DNA from: Aliiglaciecola sp. 3_MG-2023
GTDB taxonomy: Bacteria > Pseudomonadota > Gammaproteobacteria > Enterobacterales > Alteromonadaceae
Direction of reading: 5' to 3'
Assembly (NCBI RefSeq): GCF_030548205.1
Contig: NZ_JAUORV010000008.1
Coordinates: forward strand, 149,792-173,791
DNA length: 24,000 nt
In this document: piece by piece, positions 5,786-16,381 of the stretch
How positions within the stretch are numbered: the stretch's first letter is position 1
How the letters are laid out: each line of letters starts with the position of its first letter
Position numbers and translations under genes: made by a program
Notes under the pieces: generated by a model
The model's input: only the letters and a program-made list of their open reading frames with translations
The model's database searches: none
Told to the model about the DNA's origin: nothing

Positions 5786-8284
5786 TTAAAAAGACACAGT
5801 GACCTCGTCTGAACATGCTGTGGTTTCATCACAAATCATGTAAACGAAGGTTGTGTCTGTGGCTCTACGCTCTCTATCACGATAGGTACCAGTATTTTCT
5901 ACGGTCTCGAGAAGTTCGCCATTGCGATAGATATCAACCATATCTGCACTTGACCCTGAGTATGACAAATCGACCCGTAAGTTGCCAAAGCGTGACATAT
6001 AGGCTCTATCTACTTCTACCTCAATGTCAACACTGGATACGGCAACAGATTGAACAGAAGTATCAGATTGTCCCTCTGCATCAGTGGTGGTCAAGGAAAC
6101 GTCATAGCTACCCGTGGCAGGGAATATGTGAACGGGATTGACATCTACTGATGTGCTGCCGTCACCAAAGTCCCAAAGATAGCTAACTATGTCATTATTA
6201 ACATCGGTACTTTCATTGGTAAAGGTTACCTGCAAGGCCTCAGATTCATAACTAAATGCCGAAACCGGTGGTGTATCGGCAACGTCACCAACACCTGTAA
6301 TGGTTAATTCCCAATTATTGAGGGTGCCATTGTCACCGTTGTAGATATCAAGAACATTTAATGTCCAGTCACCGGTAGCCACTTCACCATCAAATGCACT
6401 GGATTCAAAGCTCTCGATAATGTTGTCTTCGGCGCCTCCAGTATTGGCCGTTAACACGGTTGAAGTGCCAGCTGGAGAGGTTAATGTTAAGATTAAGTCT
6501 CCACGATAGGTGTGGGTAATGTTAACAAAGGTACTGGTGCCAAAAACAGTTAGTGGATCAGCAATGGTAATCACTGAATCAATACCAATATCATCGGGAT
6601 CGTCTTCGTTAGGAAGTGTAGGTATTGACGTGTTATTACTGTAAACAAAGTCGTTTAGGCCTTGAGGGAATACATATAAACCTAGGGTTTTTTCCTTAAC
6701 AATGTCGCCACTTGTGCCAGTTACTATAAATTCGTAGTCGCCATAAGGGGTATCATCAAGGGTATCTACTGTGAGGGTAAAAGTGTCCCCTGGTTCAACG
6801 GTTGTTGCTGATAGCATGCCCAAACCTGACGCATCTGTTAAGGATAAAGTCACTTCGCCATCCCAATCCGAAATACTACCTACTTCAAAGGTATAAACGG
6901 CACTTTCGCCTGCTGTTATGTCTAAATTAACGGGGCTAACACTAAATTTGAAGCCCGGAGTTGGATCTGCGTCTAACAGTGCCTGGTGTACATTAAGACG
7001 TTTACCTGTCACCGTGCGACCTTGCATTACCGCGTTATCGTCTCCGGTTGCCATTAACAAGCTTTTCATCTCAAGGGCAGTTAAATCTGGATTTAATGAC
7101 CACACTAAAGCCGCAGCACCAGCCACATGAGGGGTAGCCATTGACGTGCCCGAGTAACTAGAATATCCGTTTCCTGGCGTGGTAGACAAAATTGCGGTAC
7201 CGGGGGCAGCCATATCTACCGTTGTTAAACCCCAAGAATAACCAGAGTCGCCATCGGTTCGATTAACACTGGCTACGGCTAGGATACTGTCGTTGTCATA
7301 ATTAGATGGGTAGTGGGGTAGGACATCATTATCAGTGCCATCGTTGCCTGCTGCAGCTACAAATAAAATATCTGCATCGCCAGCAGCAGTAATAGAATCT
7401 TTCAAGGCGTCGCTAAATGCACCGCCACCCCAGCTGTTGTTAAGTGCGCGTACATTAACGCCACTGTCTTTTAACGCTACAAAATAATCAATACATTCGA
7501 TGGCTCCAGCGGTATCCCCGTAACCGTCTGCAGCAAGGAATTTACAGCCAGCAATTGACACTTGGTGACTAACTCCAACCACCCCAATACCGTTATTACC
7601 GGTTGCCCCAATAGTTCCGGAAACGTGCGAGCCATGTCCTTGATCATCCATAGGATCGGTATCACCATTAACAGTATCAATACCATATACATCATCTACA
7701 TAGCCGTTACCGTCATTATCTATACCATCCCCCGCTATTTCACCTGGGTTCATCCACATATTATCGTTAAGATCTTCGTGTAAATAGTCTACACCAGTAT
7801 CAATAACACCGATGACGATACTGCTGTCTCCAGTGGTAATATCCCAGGCTTCAGGCGCGTCGATATCAGCATCTTCAATGCCGCCACTTTGGCCTGTATT
7901 ATTTAACCCCCATAATGAACCGAATTCAGTATCGTCTGGAATAAGTGCAGTTTTAACGATGTAATTTGGCTCAGCGTACAAAACGGCAGGGTCGGCCCTG
8001 AGGGTTTCAAGTGCAGTTTTTACAGATTTTCCATTGAGTTTTAGTTTTGCTATCCGACCATTCATCAAATGGGAAAAGCGATCATCAACTTCATCTCGGT
8101 TTAAATCGGTTATACGAGCAGCAACTTTGGCTCTGGCTGATTTCTTTTGGCTCGCAGAAACGCCGTCTTTATATACGACTATGACGGAATCTGATTTATA
8201 CCCATGCGAACTAGCAGCAGAGGCATGGCTAATGGCTAGCGCTGGCAACAACGCTAGTGTGATTGCAGAAAGTTTGGCTTTCAT
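5786..8284 (-). CDS. Secreted multidomain subtilisin-like serine protease: signal peptide, I9 propeptide, peptidase S8, proprotein-convertase P-domain, PKD domain, C-terminal domain
   Basis: The signal peptide is MKAKLSAITLALLPALAISHASA. The catalytic triad motifs are VIDTGVDY (Asp), HGSHVSGT (His) and GTSMATPHVAG (Ser). The P-domain-like segment is YRGDLILTLTSPAGTS...GDWTLNVLD...LNNWELTITG. The PKD motif is YLWDFGDGS...GSYDVSLTTTD. Confidence 0.9.
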   Translation of the reverse strand: MKAKLSAITLALLPALAISHASAASSHGYKSDSVIVVYKDGVSASQKKSARAKVAARITDLNRDEVDDRFSHLMNGRIAKLKLNGKSVKTALETLRADPAVLYAEPNYIVKTALIPDDTEFGSLWGLNNTGQSGGIEDADIDAPEAWDITTGDSSIVIGVIDTGVDYLHEDLNDNMWMNPGEIAGDGIDNDGNGYVDDVYGIDTVNGDTDPMDDQGHGSHVSGTIGATGNNGIGVVGVSHQVSIAGCKFLAADGYGDTAGAIECIDYFVALKDSGVNVRALNNSWGGGAFSDALKDSITAAGDADILFVAAAGNDGTDNDVLPHYPSNYDNDSILAVASVNRTDGDSGYSWGLTTVDMAAPGTAILSTTPGNGYSSYSGTSMATPHVAGAAALVWSLNPDLTALEMKSLLMATGDDNAVMQGRTVTGKRLNVHQALLDADPTPGFKFSVSPVNLDITAGESAVYTFEVGSISDWDGEVTLSLTDASGLGMLSATTVEPGDTFTLTVDTLDDTPYGDYEFIVTGTSGDIVKEKTLGLYVFPQGLNDFVYSNNTSIPTLPNEDDPDDIGIDSVITIADPLTVFGTSTFVNITHTYRGDLILTLTSPAGTSTVLTANTGGAEDNIIESFESSAFDGEVATGDWTLNVLDIYNGDNGTLNNWELTITGVGDVADTPPVSAFSYESEALQVTFTNESTDVNNDIVSYLWDFGDGSTSVDVNPVHIFPATGSYDVSLTTTDAEGQSDTSVQSVAVSSVDIEVEVDRAYMSRFGNLRVDLSYSGSSADMVDIYRNGELLETVENTGTYRDRERRATDTTFVYMICDETTACSDEVTVSF

Positions 8285-8718: not shown

Positions 8719-9210
8719 ATGATAGGAAGTCCTCGCAACAAGAATAACAGACTTTGGAGTATGCACTCTCTCAATAATGTGGGGTCAGTTGTTTTTTCAG
8801 GCGCGTTACTTTTTTCATCCTCTGCTTGCTTTTCACAACAAGACTCTTTAGACCTTATAGACTCTCCTTTGACATTAAGTCTCGCTCGTACAGTCAATTC
8901 CGATGCATCGCAAAGCGTGTTAATTATTGACCAATACGGCATACACAACACAACACTTATAATTCAAACAGCCAATTCTTCAAATCATATAAATGTGACA
9001 CAAAATGGTAGTAGCAATTTTGCTGACATCACACAAATTGGTGTAGGAAACTATGTTGATTTGGTGCAAAGCGGTGATGAAAATTTGCTCGAGGTTGTGC
9101 AACAAGGTGATTTTAATTTGGCAAATATAAACCAACAAGGTGAGCAGAGTTTTATTGTTCATCAAATTGGAAACGATATGGTTGTAAACATCACCCAATA
9201 TAAGAAGTAA
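8719..9210 (+). CDS. csgB: Curlin subunit of canonical size, CsgB-like by position (putative nucleator / minor curlin)
   Basis: A strong SD (AAGGAG at 8703-8708) precedes the start and the N-terminus looks like a signal peptide. Nine consecutive ~11-residue strand motifs of the form h-x-h-x-Q-x-G-x-x-N are present (IIDQYGIHN, IIQTANSSN, VTQNGSSN, ITQIGVGN, LVQSGDEN, VVQQGDFN, INQQGEQS, VHQIGNDM, ITQYKK), which is about 4.5 curlin repeats. The gene lies immediately 5' of the large curlin gene. An alternative start at ATG 8761 is possible. Confidence 0.8.
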   Translation: MIGSPRNKNNRLWSMHSLNNVGSVVFSGALLFSSSACFSQQDSLDLIDSPLTLSLARTVNSDASQSVLIIDQYGIHNTTLIIQTANSSNHINVTQNGSSNFADITQIGVGNYVDLVQSGDENLLEVVQQGDFNLANINQQGEQSFIVHQIGNDMVVNITQYKK

Positions 9211-9240
9211 AGCTGTTTACAATGACTCATGGAGAAGAAA

Positions 9241-10704
9241 ATGAAGTTTACAAAAACGACAGTAGCCAGTTCTATTTTGATGGCCTTATTAGCAGGGCAA
9301 GCTAGTATCGCGAATGCACAAACTGCAGTGAAAGATGACAATCCATCCATCCAATCCGATTTCATGATTGATGCTGTAGGTAACGTTATCAATTTAACTC
9401 AATCAGCTCCCACAGGAAATGCGCTGGGTAACGAAGCTATATTGATGCAAGAGGGCGATTATAACGGCCTTGATATCACCATTGTTGGTGATGCAAATAT
9501 GGTTGATGCTGAACAATTAGGTGAGGGTAACCTCATTTATGGGGTCGTCACTGGTGATGAAAATGAAGTAACTTTATATCAAAATGGTATCGAAAATGAT
9601 GCTGAAGTGATAGTTCAGGGTAGTTTTAATGAAGTGGAAATCTCCCAAATGGGAGACGGTGGTCCCTTTGGTTTTATCTTTAATCGTTCCATAAATGATA
9701 TTACTGGTGATGATAATATTTTAATCGTGGATCAGGGGGATGGCGGTAACTGGGCGAATAACTCCATTGATGGTTACGGTAATGAAGTCGAAATTACGCA
9801 AACCGAAGATTGGCATGAATCCTATATTAGCTATCTTGTCGGTGACGGAAATGAAGTTGAAGTGGATCAAGGCGGTTACTACAACATTGCAAGTTTCTCA
9901 GAAATTACAGGCAACGATAACGAAGTAAAACTTGAATCTGACGGTGAATATAACCGAATTTACGGTTATGTATACGGTGATGACAATAGCGTAGACTTTG
10001 AACAGACTGGAGATGATAACTACGCTGAATTAGGCTTATTCGAAGGAAACGACTCAAGCGCGGAAATTACCCAATTTGGTAATTTCAACGAAGCTACTAT
10101 TGATAATCTTAGTGATAATAGTGATTATGAAATAACCCAAATCGGTGATGCTAATTCTGGCTACACAGGATCTATTGGCGGTAACAATGATTTTTCAATT
10201 TTCCAAAATGGTGATCTCAACCTCGCTAGTACAGTGAACTTTGATGGGTTTTATAATCTTGTAACAATTTCCCAAGAAGGAGATGAAAATACACTATTGG
10301 CTGAAGCTGGAGTTGGAGAAGATGGTCCTAGCGGCTACTATGCCGATGATAATATTATCGATGCTGAACAAATAGGTAGTCAAAATGATGCTGTTATCCG
10401 TTTAGGTGGCAATATCGACAGTAATTATAATACCTTGGAAGTTGCACAAGTGGGTGACTTAAACGTGTTGGACTTACTCATCGATGGCTCTGAAAATTCA
10501 GTGGACATCCTACAAGAAGGTAATGATAACTGGATTGTGGGTGACGACGCATATGCAATGACTATTACTGGAGACGGAATGAGCCTATCGATCTCACAAG
10601 TGGGTAACGATAATCTCGTTACCGGCAGTATGAGTGGTGTCGGTGGTAGCATTACCGTTAATCAAGTGGGGGATTATAACGTCGCCACTATTACTCAATT
10701 GTAA
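9241..10704 (+). CDS. csgA: Giant curlin-repeat protein (CsgA-like major amyloid subunit candidate), ~487 aa
   Basis: GGAG at 9231-9234 sits 6 nt before ATG 9241. The ORF-track start at 9229 has no SD. The signal peptide is MKFTKTTVASSILMALLAGQASIANA. About 435 aa of curlin-like strands follow (G-D/N-x-N-x-h-x-h-x-Q-x-G). I count 20 h-x-Q strand motifs alternating with Q-less strands ending in G-D-x-N. Confidence 0.85.
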   Translation: MKFTKTTVASSILMALLAGQASIANAQTAVKDDNPSIQSDFMIDAVGNVINLTQSAPTGNALGNEAILMQEGDYNGLDITIVGDANMVDAEQLGEGNLIYGVVTGDENEVTLYQNGIENDAEVIVQGSFNEVEISQMGDGGPFGFIFNRSINDITGDDNILIVDQGDGGNWANNSIDGYGNEVEITQTEDWHESYISYLVGDGNEVEVDQGGYYNIASFSEITGNDNEVKLESDGEYNRIYGYVYGDDNSVDFEQTGDDNYAELGLFEGNDSSAEITQFGNFNEATIDNLSDNSDYEITQIGDANSGYTGSIGGNNDFSIFQNGDLNLASTVNFDGFYNLVTISQEGDENTLLAEAGVGEDGPSGYYADDNIIDAEQIGSQNDAVIRLGGNIDSNYNTLEVAQVGDLNVLDLLIDGSENSVDILQEGNDNWIVGDDAYAMTITGDGMSLSISQVGNDNLVTGSMSGVGGSITVNQVGDYNVATITQL

Positions 10705-10720
10705 AATTTAGACAAAAAAT

Positions 10721-10748
10721 AGGGGGATTTTTCCCCCTTTTATTTTTT
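10721..10748 (+). terminator. Strong Rho-independent terminator between csgA-like and csgE
   Basis: AGGGGGA-ttt-TCCCCCT is followed by TTTATTTTTT, 17 nt after the csgA-like stop codon. Confidence 0.85.
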
Positions 10749-10769
10749 GCCTGAGTTATGTGTTTACAA

Positions 10770-11207
10770 ATGAAGTTAATAAATAAAAAACAGTTCACAC
10801 CATTGTCTGAGTTAAGTTTTAGGCTAAGTCGTTGGCTGTTAATTATCGGCTTAACTTTGCTCAAACCTAACTTTGCGTTAGCTGATGAGCTGGCGTTAAG
10901 TGGCTTATTACTAGACAACACAATCAGTCGTCAAGGACATGAATTCGCTAGCGAATTTGGTAAATATTGGCGAGACATACCCGATACATTTGGCCAAAAT
11001 GTGCAGATAAAGGAAATTATTGTGCCCCAAGCTGGCACAAAACTAACAGTGCACTTTGCTAACCAAACAATCTACCAAACCTACATGGGGCGCAGACAAA
11101 CCCCAATCAAACAACGAGTTGAAACCGCAGTGGTTCTTTTAATCGATGCTTTGTCACGTTCAGGCATAAGTCAAAATAACCCTGATCTTGCGGATGATGA
11201 ATGGTGA
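10770..11207 (+). CDS. csgE: Curli production assembly/transport component CsgE
   Basis: The protein aligns by eye to E. coli CsgE: GLLLDNTISRQGHEFASEF versus GLLTDHTVSSIGHDFYRAF, and C-terminal DLADDEW versus DLAHDEF. The signal peptide ends in FALA. The start could be ATG 10770 or ATG 10758. Confidence 0.85.
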   Translation: MKLINKKQFTPLSELSFRLSRWLLIIGLTLLKPNFALADELALSGLLLDNTISRQGHEFASEFGKYWRDIPDTFGQNVQIKEIIVPQAGTKLTVHFANQTIYQTYMGRRQTPIKQRVETAVVLLIDALSRSGISQNNPDLADDEW

Positions 11208-11211
11208 AAAT

Positions 11212-11658
11212 ATGCAAAAAAATAAAATAATTAGGTTAACTTTTCTCGTGGGGCTATTTTCCTCACCTATATTAGCAACTGAACTAGTTTACGAACCCAT
11301 TAACCCAAGTTTTGGTGGAAATCCATTGAACGGTAGTTATCTGCTAAGTAAGGCTAATGCACAAAATACCCATAGTGCGTCAAGTAGCGAGCGTACATAC
11401 GCAGAAAGCTTACAAGAATCTTTGGAAAGGGCTTATATTAATAGAATTGTCAGAGAAGTCACTGATTTGGCATTTGGAGAAGTCAGTTATGATGAAAATG
11501 GTGATCCCATTGAAAGTATATTTTCTGAAGATTCCATTTTTGTTAGTGGCGAGTTCCAAGTGGAGTTAGTTACTAGCAATCCAGATAGCATCATAGTTGA
11601 AATTACCAATATAATCACCGATGAGATAACCATCGTTGAAATACCAAGGTTTGGTTAA
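11212..11658 (+). CDS. csgF: Curli production assembly/transport component CsgF
   Basis: The mature N-terminus TELVYEPINPSFGGNPLNGSYLLSKANAQN matches E. coli CsgF [30 protein letters not shown]. The signal peptide is MQKNKIIRLTFLVGLFSSPILA. ATG 11212 lies 4 nt after the csgE stop. The ORF-track TTG at 11188 overlaps csgE and is unlikely. Confidence 0.88.
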   Translation: MQKNKIIRLTFLVGLFSSPILATELVYEPINPSFGGNPLNGSYLLSKANAQNTHSASSSERTYAESLQESLERAYINRIVREVTDLAFGEVSYDENGDPIESIFSEDSIFVSGEFQVELVTSNPDSIIVEITNIITDEITIVEIPRFG

Positions 11659-11659
11659 T

Positions 11660-12436
11660 ATGAAGCACTATGTTGTATTACTAAGCCTATTAATTTCAGG
11701 GTGCAGTTCACTGGGTAATGTTATTCCCCCTGGTACTGAAGAAGCAATAGTCATTGAAGATTCGGCCACGTTAAAAGAACTTAAGAGCTTACCTAAACCT
11801 TTTGGTTCTATCCCTGTTTCGGTTTATGCATTCAGAGATCAGACGGGTCAATACAAACCAAGTAGTGGTGCCAGTTCTTTTAGCACCGCTGTGACGCAAG
11901 GAGCAACATCTATTTTGATGCAAGCTTTAAGTGAAACAGATTGGTTTTTGCCAGTTGAGCGGGAAGGGTTGCAGAATATTCTAACTGAACGAAAGATCGT
12001 TAGAGCGGCACTGCAAGGCGAGAACAATGGGAATGAAAAAACCGAATTACCGCCTTTGACCACAGCAAAGATCATTATCGAAGGAGGCATCATTAGCTAT
12101 GACTCTAATATTAAAACGGGAGGTTTTGGCGCAGAGTATTTTGGTATTAATGCATCGGAGTTATTTAGAGAAGATCAGATCTCTGTGTACATGAGAGCGA
12201 TAGACGTGCGTACAGGACAAGTGTTGGTTTCTGTCTCAACCAGTAAAAAGGTGTTGAGCAAAGAAATTCGGGCAGGTTTATTCCGCTACATAAGCTACAA
12301 ACGACTGGCAGAGATAGAAGCCGGTTATACAACTAACGAGCCTATGTTTACTTGTGTTCAGCAAAGTATCGAAAAAGCGATTTCTGAATTAGTCTTAAAA
12401 GGCATCAATAAAGGGGTATGGAAAGCACGGGCCTAA
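11660..12436 (+). CDS. csgG: Curli secretion channel lipoprotein CsgG
   Basis: A lipobox is present (LLISGC). Similarity to E. coli CsgG is extensive (VSVYAFRDQTGQYKP...FSTAVTQGATS...ERKIVRAA...GGIISYDSNIKTGG...GYTTNEP). ATG 11660 lies 1 nt after the csgF stop. Confidence 0.92.
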   Translation: MKHYVVLLSLLISGCSSLGNVIPPGTEEAIVIEDSATLKELKSLPKPFGSIPVSVYAFRDQTGQYKPSSGASSFSTAVTQGATSILMQALSETDWFLPVEREGLQNILTERKIVRAALQGENNGNEKTELPPLTTAKIIIEGGIISYDSNIKTGGFGAEYFGINASELFREDQISVYMRAIDVRTGQVLVSVSTSKKVLSKEIRAGLFRYISYKRLAEIEAGYTTNEPMFTCVQQSIEKAISELVLKGINKGVWKARA

Positions 12437-12500: not shown

Positions 12501-13178
12501 TCAGGCTGTTTCTGCTGTCTGTCGTGACCACGTAATAAGCTCCACTCGGTTTCTGCAATCAGTTTTTCTGAAGATACTGTAGATATGGGTTTTCACCGTA
12601 TTAACACTGATGTGCAGTTGGTCCGCTATTTCTTGATTTTGCGCCCCTTGGCTAATGTATTTCACTATGGTTTGTTCGCGTTTGGTTAACGATTGCTGCC
12701 AAAAGCCTGTTTGACTTCGATCGACTATTTCATTGGAAAAGTTGGCATCATTTAACAATTCATTGATGAGTAATTCCAAAGCATTTCTGCGAAACCATTT
12801 TCTGTCCTGCTTTATGGTATTAATGCCTTTTATAACAATCTCTAATTTATCGTTGGCATAAAATATTCCTGCAACGCCTTGTTTAATGGCGGCAATTTCA
12901 AAGTCCAGATTACTAGAAGCATTAAAGAAAATAATTTTGATTAAGTTTTTGTATTTTAAAACCGGTACTTGATGAATTGCATTTTTATTAATTGATTTAC
13001 AATCAACAAATATAACGTCGAAAGATGCAATATAATCAGATTTGGGACAAAAATTTCCAACTTGCAAATCAAAACCACAGGCGTCTACAAGATCGAGAAA
13101 GTGATTTAATTTACAGTGCCGCTTTTTGTGAATATCTTCTTTTTGTGGCGAAATAACAAACGCTCTATTTCCTTGCAT
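12501..13178 (-). CDS. csgD: CsgD-like LuxR/FixJ-family transcriptional regulator (receiver-like N-domain plus C-terminal HTH)
   Basis: The C-terminal LuxR HTH reads LTKREQTIVKYISQGAQNQEIADQLHISVNTVKTHIYSIFRKTDCRNRVELITW, compared with E. coli CsgD LTHREKEILNKLRIGASNNEIARSLFISENTVKTHLYNLFKKIAVKNRTQAVSW. The N-domain has an acidic residue in VIFVDCK, at a position like CsgD D59. The gene is adjacent to csgEFG. Confidence 0.8.
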   Translation of the reverse strand: MQGNRAFVISPQKEDIHKKRHCKLNHFLDLVDACGFDLQVGNFCPKSDYIASFDVIFVDCKSINKNAIHQVPVLKYKNLIKIIFFNASSNLDFEIAAIKQGVAGIFYANDKLEIVIKGINTIKQDRKWFRRNALELLINELLNDANFSNEIVDRSQTGFWQQSLTKREQTIVKYISQGAQNQEIADQLHISVNTVKTHIYSIFRKTDCRNRVELITWSRQTAETA

Positions 13179-13193
13179 AGCTTAGAGTCCTTT

Positions 13194-13207
13194 GAGGGTT
13201 TACCCTC
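13194..13207 (-). promoter_or_regulatory. Small hairpin in the csgD-like 5' leader, immediately 5' of its Shine-Dalgarno
   Basis: The minus-strand RNA would read AAAAA-GAGGG-UAAA-CCCUC-AAAGGA-N9-AUG. On the plus strand the same element is GAGGG-tтта-like stem plus T5, read as GAGGGTTTACCCTCTTTTT, which looks like a terminator. Confidence 0.4.
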
Positions 13208-13914
13208 TTTTTATTATCACACTTTAAGGTAGTGTAACGATTAGAATACATACATGAAGTTATAAGTTCAATCAATTTAAGGTAAAAATTTTATGCTTTA
13301 ATTTGTTTGTTTTTTGTTCGTTTTGATAAGGTGGAATAAACTAAATTAAATTAGTCACTTATACAAAAGTATCAATAATCGGGTGGTTGAATTAGCGGTT
13401 TAAATCATTCTAAAAAAAGATTGTTAGCAATTGAAATCGATAATGTTGACGCGATTCAAACGGCTCGCTCACAATTTACGAAGCTGTTTTCATATTTATT
13501 TAACCGTTTTTATTCAGATTGAGGGCCTTACAAACCTTCAAGTGCAAGGGGCAACTTTCATTTCGTTAACTACAAGGGTAGGTTATAATGTTTATACATG
13601 ATAGCTGACCTAGATATTCCTGCTGGTTATTGCTTGTATGGCAGTTTAGCGTTGGCAATAAACCTCTAAGGTGGTTTAGGTCTTGTACATCTTGTACTGC
13701 ATTTGTGGGTTACCACATATATGCCACCTTAACCCTCGATACAAGACGCTTTATCAAGCTATATCAATAGTTTATAGTGCGGCTGACGGTTTATCGTCAG
13801 GGGGTTGTTTTCAGTTTTAGATCAGGATTATAAATAATAAAATAACTGCACAATTGGCAGTGAATTTATCTCAATACTTAGCTATAAAGCTTACTACATA
13901 AAAAGGCCAGTTTG

Positions 13915-15600: not shown

Positions 15601-15833
15601 ATGCGCATCTTTTGAGACGGGCTCCCTCTGAATTGGATAGTAACGTCTCGATTAGTTGGTTTAACTGACTAAGAAACTGCAAGAAAAGACACTGATTTTT
15701 CCAGAATTACCTTATTAGGTGAGTCGATTCTTGCGACCACTTATTCGACGGTCCGCACAACTTCTGTTTCGCGTTTCGCACTCAGTTTGTTAGGCAGCCA
15801 TAAGAGTTGAATTGTGGGTTAGGGTCCAGAAAC

Positions 15834-15868
15834 AAAAAGCCCCGCTTGTACGGGGCTTTTTGTTGTTA
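15834..15868 (+). terminator. Strong intrinsic terminator inside the rimP leader (possible attenuator)
   Basis: AAAAAGCCCCG-cttgta-CGGGGCTTTTT is followed by GTTGTT. It lies 58 nt upstream of the rimP start. It is symmetric, so it could act in both directions. Confidence 0.85.
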
Positions 15869-15887
15869 TTATTGGTTTACTATATCT

Positions 15888-15907
15888 GGGCTTTTCGCCC
15901 TTTTTTT
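15888..15907 (+). terminator. Second, weaker terminator-like hairpin directly before the rimP SD
   Basis: GGGC-ttttc-GCCC is followed by T7, and the rimP GGAG SD starts 7 nt later. The stem is only 4 bp. Confidence 0.35.
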
Positions 15908-15925
15908 GTATTTGGAGCTTTATTT

Positions 15926-16381
15926 TTGTCACAACTTGAACAAAAACTCACGGATATGCTAGTTGCACCAGTTGAAGCTACAGGCTTTGAGTTGGTGGGA
16001 GTAGAATTTGTTCGTGCTGGAAAACACTCGACGATGCGCGTCTATATAGATCATCCTGATGGAATTACTGTTGAGAATTGTGCTGACGTGAGTTTACAGG
16101 TTAGCGCAGTATTGGATGTTGAAGATCCCATTAGTACTGAATATAACCTAGAAGTATCGTCTCCCGGCATGGATAGACCGCTGTTTAAAGAAGCGCATTA
16201 TCAACAGTGTGTTGGAGAGGTTGTGGCAGTGCGGTTGCGTATGCCAATGAATGATAGAAGAAACTTTAAAGGTACATTGTTAAGTGTCGACAATGGAAAT
16301 CTAACGGTAGAAGTTGATGGTCAAGAATTCGTTTTAGCCGTGGCAAATATCGAAAAAGGTAATTTGGTTCCAACGTTTTAA
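15926..16381 (+). CDS. rimP: Ribosome maturation factor RimP (TTG start)
   Basis: From TTG 15926 the protein begins (M)[27 protein letters not shown], compared with E. coli [28 protein letters not shown]. GGAG at 15914-15917 lies 8 nt upstream. The longer ORF-track start at 15812 would translate through the terminator hairpin and is rejected. Confidence 0.9.

Follow-up and report, generated by a model that had tools for sequence, protein, structure and literature searches.

We analysed a window of 24,000 nucleotides from Aliiglaciecola sp. 3_MG-2023, i.e., the whole stretch of DNA presented here, to which all coordinates refer. It contains a curli (csg) locus with the gene order csgB-csgA-csgE-csgF-csgG as well as a convergent csgD-like regulator downstream. 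The respective features are as follows.

8719..9210, + strand: csgB-like minor curlin, 163-aa ORF; likely start Met15 at 8761
9241..10704, + strand: csgA-like major curlin gene, 487 aa plus stop codon (ORF list and Curlin_rpt match)
10721..10748, + strand: GC-rich hairpin AGGGGGA-TTTT-TCCCCCT, then a T-run, between csgA and csgE
10758..11207, + strand: csgE (Pfam CsgE, 9e-28); start codon uncertain, relatives called at 109-123 aa
11188..11658, + strand: csgF (Pfam CsgF, 2e-20); likely start ATG 11212, relatives 148 aa
11636..12436, + strand: csgG, outer-membrane channel lipoprotein (Pfam CsgG, 1.9e-78); likely start ATG 11660
12501..13178, - strand: csgD/VpsT-like LuxR-family regulator, convergent with csgG (Pfam GerE, 5.9e-19; VpsT-like_REC, 8.3e-7)

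This order, i.e., csgBAEFG with csgD downstream, is the layout described for Alteromonas (PMC3521004), while the curli genes of E. coli form divergent csgBAC and csgDEFG operons. Synteny of the csg genes is kept in three Aliiglaciecola genomes. The mature N-terminus of CsgF, as read from the sequence, is TELVYEPINPSFGGNPLNG, and CsgG shows the lipobox LISGC (CsgG of relatives has 258 aa). For the regulator, CsgD is the best NCBIfam match (3.7e-28, below cut-off). The hairpin between csgA and csgE looks like a terminator or attenuator; a stem-loop is located at the equivalent place in 15/15 orthologous loci, with differing sequences.

The curlin encoded upstream of csgA is small. Its layout, as read from the sequence, comprises nine strands of about 11 aa, each with a terminal Gln (residues 72, 83, 95, 106, 117, 128, 139, 149 and 160), which is in accordance with a preliminary description of this DNA that reported Gln in every such strand. 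The protein matches Pfam Curlin_rpt (8e-11), and its NCBIfam match to CsgB (8.6e-14) is slightly better than that to CsgA (7.7e-12), both being below cut-off. Position and size of the small curlin are alike in Aliiglaciecola genomes. Its AlphaFold2 (AF2) model, computed from the single sequence, has a mean pLDDT of 35.8 and is thus uninformative.

The csgA gene lies within an ORF of 491 aa (9229..10704, + strand). Here, ATG 9241 is a better start than the ORF's 9229: GGAG is found 6 nt before it and orthologues are called at 487 aa, such that the previously assumed start at 9241 and length of about 487 aa hold. The following parts of the product are used throughout the text.

9241..9318, + strand: Sec-type signal peptide, residues 1-26, MKFTKTTVASSILMALLAGQASIANA, followed by Q (read from the sequence; AF2 pLDDT below 50 for residues 1-31)
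9319..9381, + strand: non-repeat N-terminal segment, residues 27-47, QTAVKDDNPSIQSDFMIDAVG (sequence, AF2)
9382..10701, + strand: solenoid core, residues 48-487 (strand layout; AF2 DSSP strands 49-486; positions 1 and 7 conserved in 22 orthologues)
9382..9402, + strand: first strand b0, NVINLTQ (Q54 in 22/22 orthologues)
9919..9939, + strand: strand a8, NEVKLES, with Ser at the Gln-ladder position (orthologue alignment)
10678..10698, + strand: last strand b18, NVATITQ (Q486 in 22/22 orthologues)

By inspection, the signal peptide shows a basic n-region and a hydrophobic core, then A-N-A followed by Q. The mature protein has 461 aa, including K2, R3, H1, C0, D52, E34, N52, G61 and Q23, which reproduces the earlier count of five Lys/Arg and no Cys. 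With 86 Asp/Glu (18.7%), its net charge is about -81. Residues 27-47 are not Gly-rich, unlike N22 of E. coli, i.e., no N22-like Gly-rich targeting segment was found in this stretch before the repeats. According to Sleutel et al. (PMC10192328), N22-like segments are the exception. Within the segment, K31, D40 and A45 are invariant among 10 aligned homologues, and AF2 predicts a short helix at residues 38-42 (pLDDT 62-82). It is possibly a targeting segment.

Pfam Curlin_rpt (PF07012) matches the protein in 8 stretches (E 8.5e-38) with 128.4 bits, which, given the cut-off of 20.7, is not a chance match. Using phmmer, we also find matches to solved curli subunits (8c50_A, E 3.2e-23; 8enq_A, E 1.9e-5). 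The NCBIfam equivalog for enterobacterial CsgA (NF007470) scores 102 bits, i.e., below its cut-off of 160, and we thus group the protein with CsgA-type curlins in the wider sense and not with the enterobacterial equivalog. The AF2 model (mean pLDDT 85.4, pTM 0.82) predicts one continuous strand-arc-strand solenoid, whose 37 strands cover residues 49-486. The profile search supports the CsgA-like identity, and the long beta-solenoid that had been proposed is also predicted by AF2. A Foldseek search against the PDB gave no match at E <= 1e-3 and did not return the solved curli chains, such that the fold identity rests on the sequence matches together with the AF2 strand pattern. An RTX-like calcium-binding repeat, considered on the basis of the G-D-x-N turns, was rejected since only Curlin_rpt matches and the period is 11/22 and not 9.

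The core consists of 37 strands (b0, a1..a18, b1..b18), i.e., 18.5 curlin repeats of about 22 aa each, in agreement with the 18-20 or so modified repeats estimated before. The unit spans 11 residues (N-x-h-x-h-x-[Q or h]-x-G-x-x). Position 1 is Asn in 32/37 strands, and 26/36 arcs have 4 residues. The Gln register holds 20 strands, namely the 18 a strands as well as the first and the last strand. Gln itself is present in 19 of these, a8 being the exception (position 7 is Gln in 17/18 a strands and in both end strands), and a strict Q-x-G pattern fits only 15. The preliminary description had counted 20 h-x-Q-x-G strands. Ladder positions are spaced by 22-23 aa, except across insertions and at both end strands, and one additional Gln (VIVQG) is off register by one residue. 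The recurring N-E-V-x-h-x-Q signature was recovered four times, plus the NEVKLES of a8.

At position 7 of the intervening b strands, we find V/I/L/M/A/N/S/Y/E/D and never Gln (0/17 internal b strands). This matches the alternation of strands with and without Gln described earlier, with the end strands excepted: b0 and b18 are assigned to the b sheet by strand alternation, yet both carry Gln. The odd strand number, observed in the layout as well as by AF2 DSSP, places by alternation both terminal strands on one sheet. Since both keep Gln, the putative docking rungs are canonical. The respective double-Gln end rungs (Q54/Q70 and Q475/Q486) are invariant among the 22 orthologues. Core positions of a strands are free of acidic residues (two are found on b strands), and Asp/Glu fill 24/54 of the outward a-strand positions.

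The 22 orthologues stem from at least seven Alteromonadaceae genera and Shewanella marina. They are 481-491 aa long, down to 44% identity, and share register and Gln pattern as well as insertions and acidity. The nearest Aliiglaciecola proteins are 83-87% identical to the csgA protein, and Alteromonas proteins 44-48%. Of the 18 a strands, 14 have an invariant motif-a Gln, and three more have it in 20 or more of the 22 sequences; the ladder position of a8 is occupied by Q (14 orthologues), S (7) or T (1). Annotations of relatives read 'curlin [Aliiglaciecola]' and 'putative secreted major subunit of curlin [Alteromonas macleodii]', the latter (AFT79647.1) belonging to the same orthologous family. 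The exact protein sequence is absent from a collection of 15 billion proteins. Family members were found in Tara Oceans and other marine metagenomes, with one exact sequence on 146 contigs, so that the Alteromonadaceae CsgA family seems widespread in marine samples.

The csgA gene is under strong purifying selection (dN/dS 0.035-0.059 against Aliiglaciecola orthologues). A pseudogene or decaying repeat array is ruled out by the dN/dS of about 0.05 and the intact orthologues. Tandem Repeats Finder reports for csgA only a 22-nt match with 1.9 copies, i.e., no DNA-level tandem repeat; dispersed matches of 15-33 nt within the gene are 62-93% identical. Given this and the constant orthologue length, slippage-driven repeat expansion was rejected, and the expansion or contraction that had been suggested is not seen.

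In our layout, lengthened arcs have 9, 11, 14, 8 and 10 residues. The three larger extensions and a block of conserved atypical rungs are listed below.

9649..9681, + strand: arc insertion 1, MGDGGPFGFIF, residues 137-147, +7 residues (arc length 11)
9682..9834, + strand: conserved atypical rungs 4-6, residues 148-198 (alignment, conservation scores)
10309..10350, + strand: arc insertion 2, GVGEDGPSGYYADD, residues 357-370, +10 residues (arc length 14)
10549..10578, + strand: arc insertion 3, AYAMTITGDG, residues 437-446, +6 residues (strand layout, conservation)

Insertion 1 has a mean conservation of 0.82, which among 11-residue blocks is exceeded only by 456-466, and AF2 pLDDT falls to 74 there. 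Insertion 2 (GVGEDGPSGYYADD) is the least conserved block (0.38; pLDDT 68). Insertion 3 comes after strand b16 (NWIVGDD), which holds the invariant W431, and the AF2 strand is broken at this site (431-433 and 440-443). Two smaller arc extensions follow the first strand (+5) and b14 (+4). From the four aromatic-rich insertions reported before, three are thus true arc extensions; the remaining one, TEDWHESYISYLVG, is in register (arc TEDW, degenerate strand HESYISY, arc LVGDG), and the two smaller extensions had been overlooked. The b strands of rungs 4-6 are NRSINDI, NWANNSI and HESYISY, with Asn at a core position, and W171, W191 and Y195 provide a conserved aromatic surface. Outward conservation of these rungs is 0.65-0.81 compared to about 0.4-0.5 for a strands, and the most conserved stretch in the genome scan, Q..DW[HN]E[SA]Y, is part of them.

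We also compared the protein with known curlins. E. coli CsgA (P28307; PDB 8ENQ) shares the curlin repeat, the strand-arc-strand solenoid, the Asn/Gln ladders and the partnership with CsgB, CsgE, CsgF and CsgG. It differs by its 5 repeats within 151 aa, an N22 targeting segment, Ser for Asn in motif a, mild acidity and Gln on both strands, i.e., 9/11 Gln have a partner at +10-12 in E. coli CsgA vs. 4/24 here. R15.5, the CsgA homologue of Pontibacter korlensis (A0A0E3UX01, PDB 8C50), contains 20% Asp + Glu, has a pI of 2.98 and polymerises robustly (PMC10192328). Shared features are the long solenoid, the odd strand count (31 in R15.5, 37 here), the very acidic composition and outward acidic ladders on the motif-a sheet. 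In the centrosymmetric R15.5, both sheets carry Gln and the near-identical repeats lack insertions. The protein studied here, in contrast, combines one-sheet Gln with degenerate b strands and with three arc insertions of considerable size.

These latter features correspond to the 'degenerate' CsgA class of Sleutel et al. (2023), which is characterised by incomplete motifs (e.g., no motif-b Gln), arc insertions, or both (PMC10192328). Both are found in the csgA protein, i.e., Gln-free internal b strands and arc insertions, which places it in this non-centrosymmetric class. An example of the class is the protein of Sediminicola sp. YIK13 (A0A0S1S4K2). Here, motif-b Gln loss is systematic and not sporadic: it concerns 17/17 internal b strands and is conserved across genera, in an otherwise very regular register. 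The repeat-extraction rules of the same study include repeats without a second Gln (PMC10192328), and two minimal motifs per repeat were reported to be common in CsgB and not in CsgA (Dueholm 2012, PMC3521004). Published CsgAs reach 62 repeats. Among 131 long curlin representatives, a sample biased to matches of the Alteromonadaceae CsgA family profile and evaluated with a crude strand-calling heuristic, alternating Gln is the commonest pattern; an alignment-free Gln lag count agrees in direction. Within this sampled set, the csgA protein has the highest Asp + Glu fraction.

The Alteromonadaceae orthologues share the 37-strand register with Gln on a strands and both ends, the length of 481-491 aa, insertions, acidity, the lack of Cys and the csgBAEFG plus csgD layout; a point of difference is the Ser of a8 in place of Gln. 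For Am18-CsgA of A. macleodii, a probable member of this family with 18 repeats, export through E. coli CsgEFG has been shown, as has the formation of cross-beta fibres that bind Congo red (PMC13579223). Nanofibres with WAXS spacings of 0.46/0.98 nm were obtained, fibres and hydrogels formed without CsgB, and the Sec and N22 parts of the construct were those of E. coli (PMC13579223). Given species, repeat number and cluster membership, Am18-CsgA is probably orthologous to the csgA protein.

Taken together, layout, composition and orthologues confirm the one-sheet Gln, the strong acidity and the arc insertions of the preliminary description. Its conclusion, i.e., an unusual curlin with different stacking and nucleation rules, is not supported: the end rungs are canonical double-Gln rungs, Gln-free motif b as well as insertions have already been described, alternating Gln is the commonest pattern among the 131 representatives, and the 18-repeat Am18-CsgA forms fibres (PMC13579223).

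Based on the sequence evidence, the csgA protein is very probably a CsgA-type curlin that serves as major subunit in a curli (type VIII secretion) system. Following the E. coli paradigm and the A. macleodii orthologue, the unfolded subunit would cross the inner membrane via Sec and would be passed by CsgE to the CsgG channel, capped by CsgF. Folding would take place outside the cell, on CsgB or the fibre end, and subunits would stack end to end into a cross-beta fibre with about 8.9 nm per subunit (18.5 rungs x 0.48 nm). Within a subunit, the Asn/Gln ladder would run along one sheet and V/I/L/M would fill the Gln position of the other, such that the core would be more hydrophobic and non-centrosymmetric. 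Most of the 86 acidic residues are predicted to lie on the arcs and on the outside of the Gln-bearing sheet. By analogy with R15.5, this acidic surface should keep the fibres hydrated and mutually repelling, or Ca2+/Mg2+-cross-linked in sea water. Given the odd strand count, subunits would most likely meet head to tail and turned by 180 degrees, as in R15.5.

A more specific assembly is conceivable, which we put forward tentatively and consider rather doubtful. Here, the Gln residues of the end strands would act as docking caps for 180-degree head-to-tail joins: Q486 would extend the Gln ladder of the next subunit and Q54 that of the previous one. Gln ladder, hydrophobic ladder, acidic face and aromatic patch would then alternate sides along the fibre, swapping every ~9 nm and resulting in a periodically patterned amyloid. 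Matrix polysaccharide or cations might bind to its conserved bulges, namely GDGGPFGFIF and the W/Y patch in rungs 4-6.

It is improbable that the protein is exported via CsgG and does not polymerise, i.e., that it is a monomeric surface beta-solenoid such as a cation- or carbohydrate-binding adhesin, with the small curlin building any fibre. With a net charge of about -81, self-association would be disfavoured, but the equally acidic R15.5 polymerises robustly (PMC10192328). The conserved aromatic surface patch, the stronger conservation of the outward face in sheet b than in sheet a, and the canonical Gln on every small-curlin strand would fit such a division of labour as well. However, the solenoid ends are open and their canonical double-Gln rungs do not vary within the family, the AF2 model is without capping element, and the A. 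macleodii orthologue gave fibres and hydrogels without CsgB (PMC13579223). A mixture of roles, with co-polymerisation of the two curlins or with the large one as a specialised cap or spacer on fibres consisting mostly of another curlin from elsewhere in the genome, has in our view very little probability. Some genomes contain more than two CsgA-like genes (PMC10192328) and our view is limited to 24 kb of the genome; against this, a csgB-csgA pair with small and large curlin is the standard arrangement, the pair is syntenic in 3/3 Aliiglaciecola loci inspected, and the hairpin after csgA fits csgBA being expressed highly relative to csgEFG.

A beta-helix outside the curlins (pectate-lyase-like, autotransporter passenger, RTX or ice-binding) with N/Q/G-rich repeats is effectively refuted. 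Three-sided beta-helices (PL6 alginate lyases, EspP, phage tailspikes) are the top Foldseek matches, but weak ones (E >= 0.028, TM-score <= 0.23). Curlin_rpt is the only family found by Pfam (8.5e-38), the solved curli subunits 8C50 and 8ENQ are matched by sequence, the 11-residue strand-plus-arc period suits a two-sheet solenoid and not a three-sided helix, and the gene is located within a csg operon.

As a CsgA-type major curlin, the protein belongs to what is known already: its family is annotated and surveyed, an Alteromonas relative has been produced experimentally, and no trait is peculiar to this genome. It adds one more Aliiglaciecola lineage to the annotated Alteromonadaceae curlin family and is thus of little discovery value. 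The family architecture is confirmed to be rigid, i.e., 18.5 repeats, one-sheet Gln, an acidic surface and fixed insertions. A small, putative lead is the combination of double-Gln end strands with an odd strand count. For R15.5, near-perfect repeat symmetry limited the cryo-EM reconstruction to 7.6 Å (PMC10192328). Since the conserved bulges break the repeat symmetry, a member of the Alteromonadaceae family could be better suited to solving a curli fibre at atomic resolution, and if the end-strand Gln are indeed docking caps, the bulges could act as natural fiducials in high-resolution cryo-EM of curli. The systematic swap from Gln to hydrophobic residues, with Gln only at the ends, represents a natural experiment on the role of the ladder in folding versus docking.

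The csgA-like gene lies in a single long plus-strand ORF of the ORF list (9229..10704, 491 aa). Its second ATG, at 9241, is the start chosen in the preliminary description. This start is borne out by a GGAG correctly spaced ahead of it and by the resulting length of 487 aa, which is that of the gene calls in the closest relatives. The protein carries a Sec leader of typical form (MKFTKTTVASSILMALLAGQASIANA, with Q following the cleavage point), leaving a mature part of 461 residues. The latter contains 52 Asp, 34 Glu, 52 Asn, 61 Gly, 23 Gln, 2 Lys, 3 Arg, 1 His and no Cys, i.e., 18.7% of its residues are acidic. The exact sequence is absent from a collection of 15 billion proteins.

The gene is embedded in the following csg cluster.

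8719..9210, + strand: small curlin, CsgB-like (NCBIfam slightly in favour of CsgB)
9241..10704, + strand: csgA-like gene (Curlin_rpt, E 8.5e-38)
10758..11207, + strand: csgE (Pfam, 9e-28)
11188..11658, + strand: csgF (Pfam, 2e-20)
11636..12436, + strand: csgG (Pfam, 1.9e-78)
12501..13178, - strand: CsgD/VpsT-like LuxR regulator, convergent with csgG

CsgG has the lipobox LISGC, and the mature N-terminus of CsgF, TELVYEPINPSFGGNPLNG, resembles the CsgG-binding segment of E. coli CsgF. No CsgC or CsgH gene is present within the cluster. The layout is that reported for Alteromonas and Pseudoalteromonas, where csgBAEFG form one block and csgD is found downstream on the opposite strand (Dueholm et al., PMC3521004). 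The neighbourhood is syntenic in three Aliiglaciecola assemblies and is flanked by ordinary chromosomal genes (S8 protease, aldo-keto reductase, mannitol dehydrogenase, rimP-nusA-infB-rbfA-truB).

Several further elements were observed within and around the cluster. A strong, terminator-like hairpin (AGGGGGA-TTTT-TCCCCCT, then TTTATTTTTT; 10721-10748, + strand) is located 17 nt past the csgA stop. In each of the 15 orthologous loci that were folded, a stem-loop is found at this place, with differing sequences and a T-run in some only; it may act as an attenuator or 3' stabiliser that sets the csgBA:csgEFG expression ratio. The small curlin (8719-9210, + strand) has nine strands, also an odd number, and ends in ...NITQYKK, the two terminal Lys being 2 of the 3 basic residues of its mature part. 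In this, the small curlin resembles E. coli CsgB, whose charged last repeat has been implicated in attachment to the cell surface. Divergent from csgB, a secreted S8 subtilase (5786-8284, - strand; fervidolysin-like prodomain, P-domain and PKD domain) is syntenic in Aliiglaciecola and highly acidic (125 Asp+Glu vs. 39 Lys+Arg). Where the window has a gap of 733 bp (13179-13911), three other Aliiglaciecola loci (L001-L003) hold a TonB-dependent receptor and a 2OG-Fe(II) oxygenase gene, flanked by the csgD-like and mannitol dehydrogenase genes. The first codons of the mechanical ORF 15812..16381 lie within a rimP leader (Rfam RF01770, 78 bits; 15803-15907, + strand), and its RimP_N domain starts only at residue 52, so that the true rimP start must be downstream of 15812. 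No tRNA genes were found in the window.

With regard to family, the preliminary reading of the sequence was accurate and its assignment to the curlins correct. Pfam reports Curlin_rpt alone (E 8.5e-38; 128 bits vs. a cut-off of 20.7; eight stretches). A phmmer search against PDB sequences retrieves two curli subunits of known structure, namely the 363-aa 8C50 (E 3.2e-23; 'Curlin associated repeat-containing protein') and, at E 1.9e-5, the major curlin subunit of E. coli, 8ENQ. Based on length, name and repeat pattern, although not on a statement in the search output, 8C50 is taken as R15.5, the CsgA homologue of Pontibacter korlensis. AlphaFold2, run with a ten-sequence alignment, predicts a continuous solenoid of 37 strands (residues 49 to 486) and no other domains, with mean pLDDT 85.4 and pTM 0.82; confidence is low in the leader only and dips at the three insertions. 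For the small curlin, the single-sequence prediction (pLDDT 35.8) is uninformative. Since the Foldseek matches of the model in the PDB are weak (best E 0.028, TM 0.23) and comprise only three-sided beta-helices, with curli structures not retrieved, structure comparison does not establish the curli fold. Membership in another beta-helix family is effectively excluded given the Curlin_rpt match, the phmmer curli matches and the weak Foldseek TM.

To lay out the strands, the sequence was cut ahead of each turn-associated Asn. This results in a highly regular succession of units 11 residues long (N-x-h-x-h-x-[Q or h]-x-G-x-x), in which strand b0 is followed by a1 to a18 alternating with b1 to b18 (a, Gln-register sheet; b, other sheet). 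The Gln register comprises 20 strands, 19 of which carry Gln (exception a8, NEVKLES), while the strict Q-x-G pattern is matched by only 15. The intervening strands have V, I, L, M, A, N, S, Y, E or D at this position and Gln in none. The previously drawn contrast with the small upstream curlin thus stands, i.e., the neighbour has Gln in every strand (72, 83, 95, 106, 117, 128, 139, 149 and 160) whereas the window protein alternates. Strand a8 (9919-9939, + strand) is the a-strand Gln position with the greatest variability among 22 orthologues, with Ser in the window protein and 7/22 and Gln in 14/22.

Of the four insertions previously described as register breaks, the strand layout confirms three as arc extensions:

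Arc extension 1: MGDGGPFGFIF, +7 residues
Arc extension 2: GVGEDGPSGYYADD, +10 residues
Arc extension 3: AYAMTITGDG, +6 residues

The fourth, TEDWHESYISYLVG, is in register and resolves as an arc, the degenerate strand HESYISY and a second arc. Two lesser extensions, following the first strand and b14, had been overlooked.

New stacking and nucleation rules, as suggested in the preliminary description, are unsupported, since the rungs for docking are of canonical type and precedents for every feature have been published. CsgA repeat numbers have been reported with a maximum of 22 (Dueholm et al., PMC3521004) and with a range of 4-62 and secondary maxima near 15 and 22 (Sleutel et al., PMC10192328). 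The minimal repeat of Dueholm et al. has one Gln, two minimal motifs per repeat being frequent in CsgB, unlike in CsgA (PMC3521004). The extraction rules of Sleutel et al. take in repeats without the second Gln, and the criteria of their 'degenerate' class include a motif b without Gln as well as arc insertions (PMC10192328). Only 4/24 Gln have a partner at +10-12 in the window protein, compared to 9/11 in E. coli CsgA. By this measure just 8/131 long representatives are of the double-Gln type, and a crude strand caller finds alternating Gln to be the majority pattern among long representatives, where both samples are biased to matches of the family's own profile. The Asp+Glu fraction of the window protein is the highest of 131 sampled proteins (0.14-0.17 for its family vs. 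a mean of 0.11). R15.5 is still more acidic than the window protein (20% vs. 18.7% Asp+Glu; pI 2.98), yet it polymerises, with bundling and mineral encrustation modulated by Ca2+ (PMC10192328). The acidity is partly organismal, since the neighbouring secreted protease is highly acidic, too.

The closest proteins are from Aliiglaciecola (83-87% identity), one of them named 'curlin' by NCBI. Scanning one genome per species, we find orthologues of 41-87% identity in Aliiglaciecola, Fluctibacter, Alteromonas (many species), Agaribacter, Paraglaciecola, Glaciecola and Ningiella; the Shewanella marina orthologue has 29%. Among these, 22 orthologues that were compared are 460-513 aa long (mostly 481-491), lack Cys, contain 59-86 Asp+Glu vs. 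1-13 Lys+Arg and share one strand register. The a-strand Gln is invariant in 14/18 strands and present in at least 20/22 sequences in three further ones. Internal b strands have residues other than Gln at position 7, except for one sequence at b7, while Gln is found in 22/22 in the two end strands (NVINLTQ, first; NVATITQ, last), which alternation assigns to the b sheet. Purifying selection is evident from dN/dS values of 0.035-0.059 against four Aliiglaciecola orthologues, with synonymous sites close to saturation. No DNA-level tandem repeat was found in csgA, and the repeat number of the family is fixed, without drift, with one exception. This sole sign of altered repeat number is a metagenomic homologue (P0006; 455 aa, source contig 6.8 kb) with a clean 28-column gap (27 residues; columns 204-231 of the homologue alignment A1), i.e., about one repeat lost. 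Searching 1.84 billion representatives with a profile yields 2,635 curlin-like sequences at E <= 1e-3 and just 22 at E <= 1e-30; the specific family is therefore small, whereas the superfamily of long curlins that contains it is very large.

In one sheet, Asn stands at position 1 and Gln at position 7, with hydrophobic residues at 3 and 5; the other sheet likewise has Asn at 1 but is hydrophobic at 7 as well as at 3 and 5. The protein thus has a single Gln ladder and a wider hydrophobic core. Asp/Glu are absent from the core positions of the a strands and occur twice in those of the b strands; they fill 24/54 outward positions of the a strands, 12/57 of the b strands and 44 in the arcs. Outward residues are better conserved in the b than in the a sheet, most strongly in rungs 4-6 (NRSINDI, NWANNSI and HESYISY, plus the bulge GDGGPFGFIF) and towards the C-terminus, which suggests a constrained lateral surface. 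Residues 148-198 (9682-9834, + strand) and the bulge (9649-9681) are among the family's most conserved parts. Here, N152 and N174 place Asn at a normally hydrophobic core position, and W171, W191, E193 and Y195 are invariant or nearly so on the surface. Rungs 4-6 and the bulge could form a lateral binding surface.

Experimental data are available for Am18-CsgA, the 18-repeat CsgA of Alteromonas macleodii. Fused to E. coli Sec and N22 sequences and produced in a csgB-lacking strain co-expressing csgC, csgE, csgF and csgG, it bound Congo red, gave spacings of 0.46 and 0.98 nm and formed nanofibres and hydrogels (PMC13579223). Am18-CsgA is very probably an orthologue of the window protein, as judged from the 90% cluster of P0004 (a homologue with 47% identity to the window protein), which includes a 483-aa protein of A. 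macleodii annotated 'putative secreted major subunit of curlin'.

By analogy to the E. coli system and Am18-CsgA, the protein would be exported by Sec and pass through CsgG assisted by CsgE and CsgF. Its folding would be templated by CsgB or a fibre end, and subunits would stack end-to-end, each adding 18.5 x 0.48 = ~8.9 nm. Subunits of R15.5 were shown to meet head-to-tail, related by a two-fold screw (PMC10192328). The odd strand number and the Gln on both end strands favour, by inference only, such an arrangement, in which the terminal Gln of each subunit would extend the Gln ladder of its neighbour.

A surface solenoid that does not polymerise is disfavoured, given the open canonical ends and the precedents of R15.5 and Am18-CsgA. 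With 24 kb in view, a mixed or accessory role beside other curlins can also be considered; against it stand the standard two-gene arrangement and the synteny.

The window protein adds a member to a family that is already known, annotated and partly characterised. Its conserved double-Gln caps, odd strand number and conserved bulges provide a modest structural lead.
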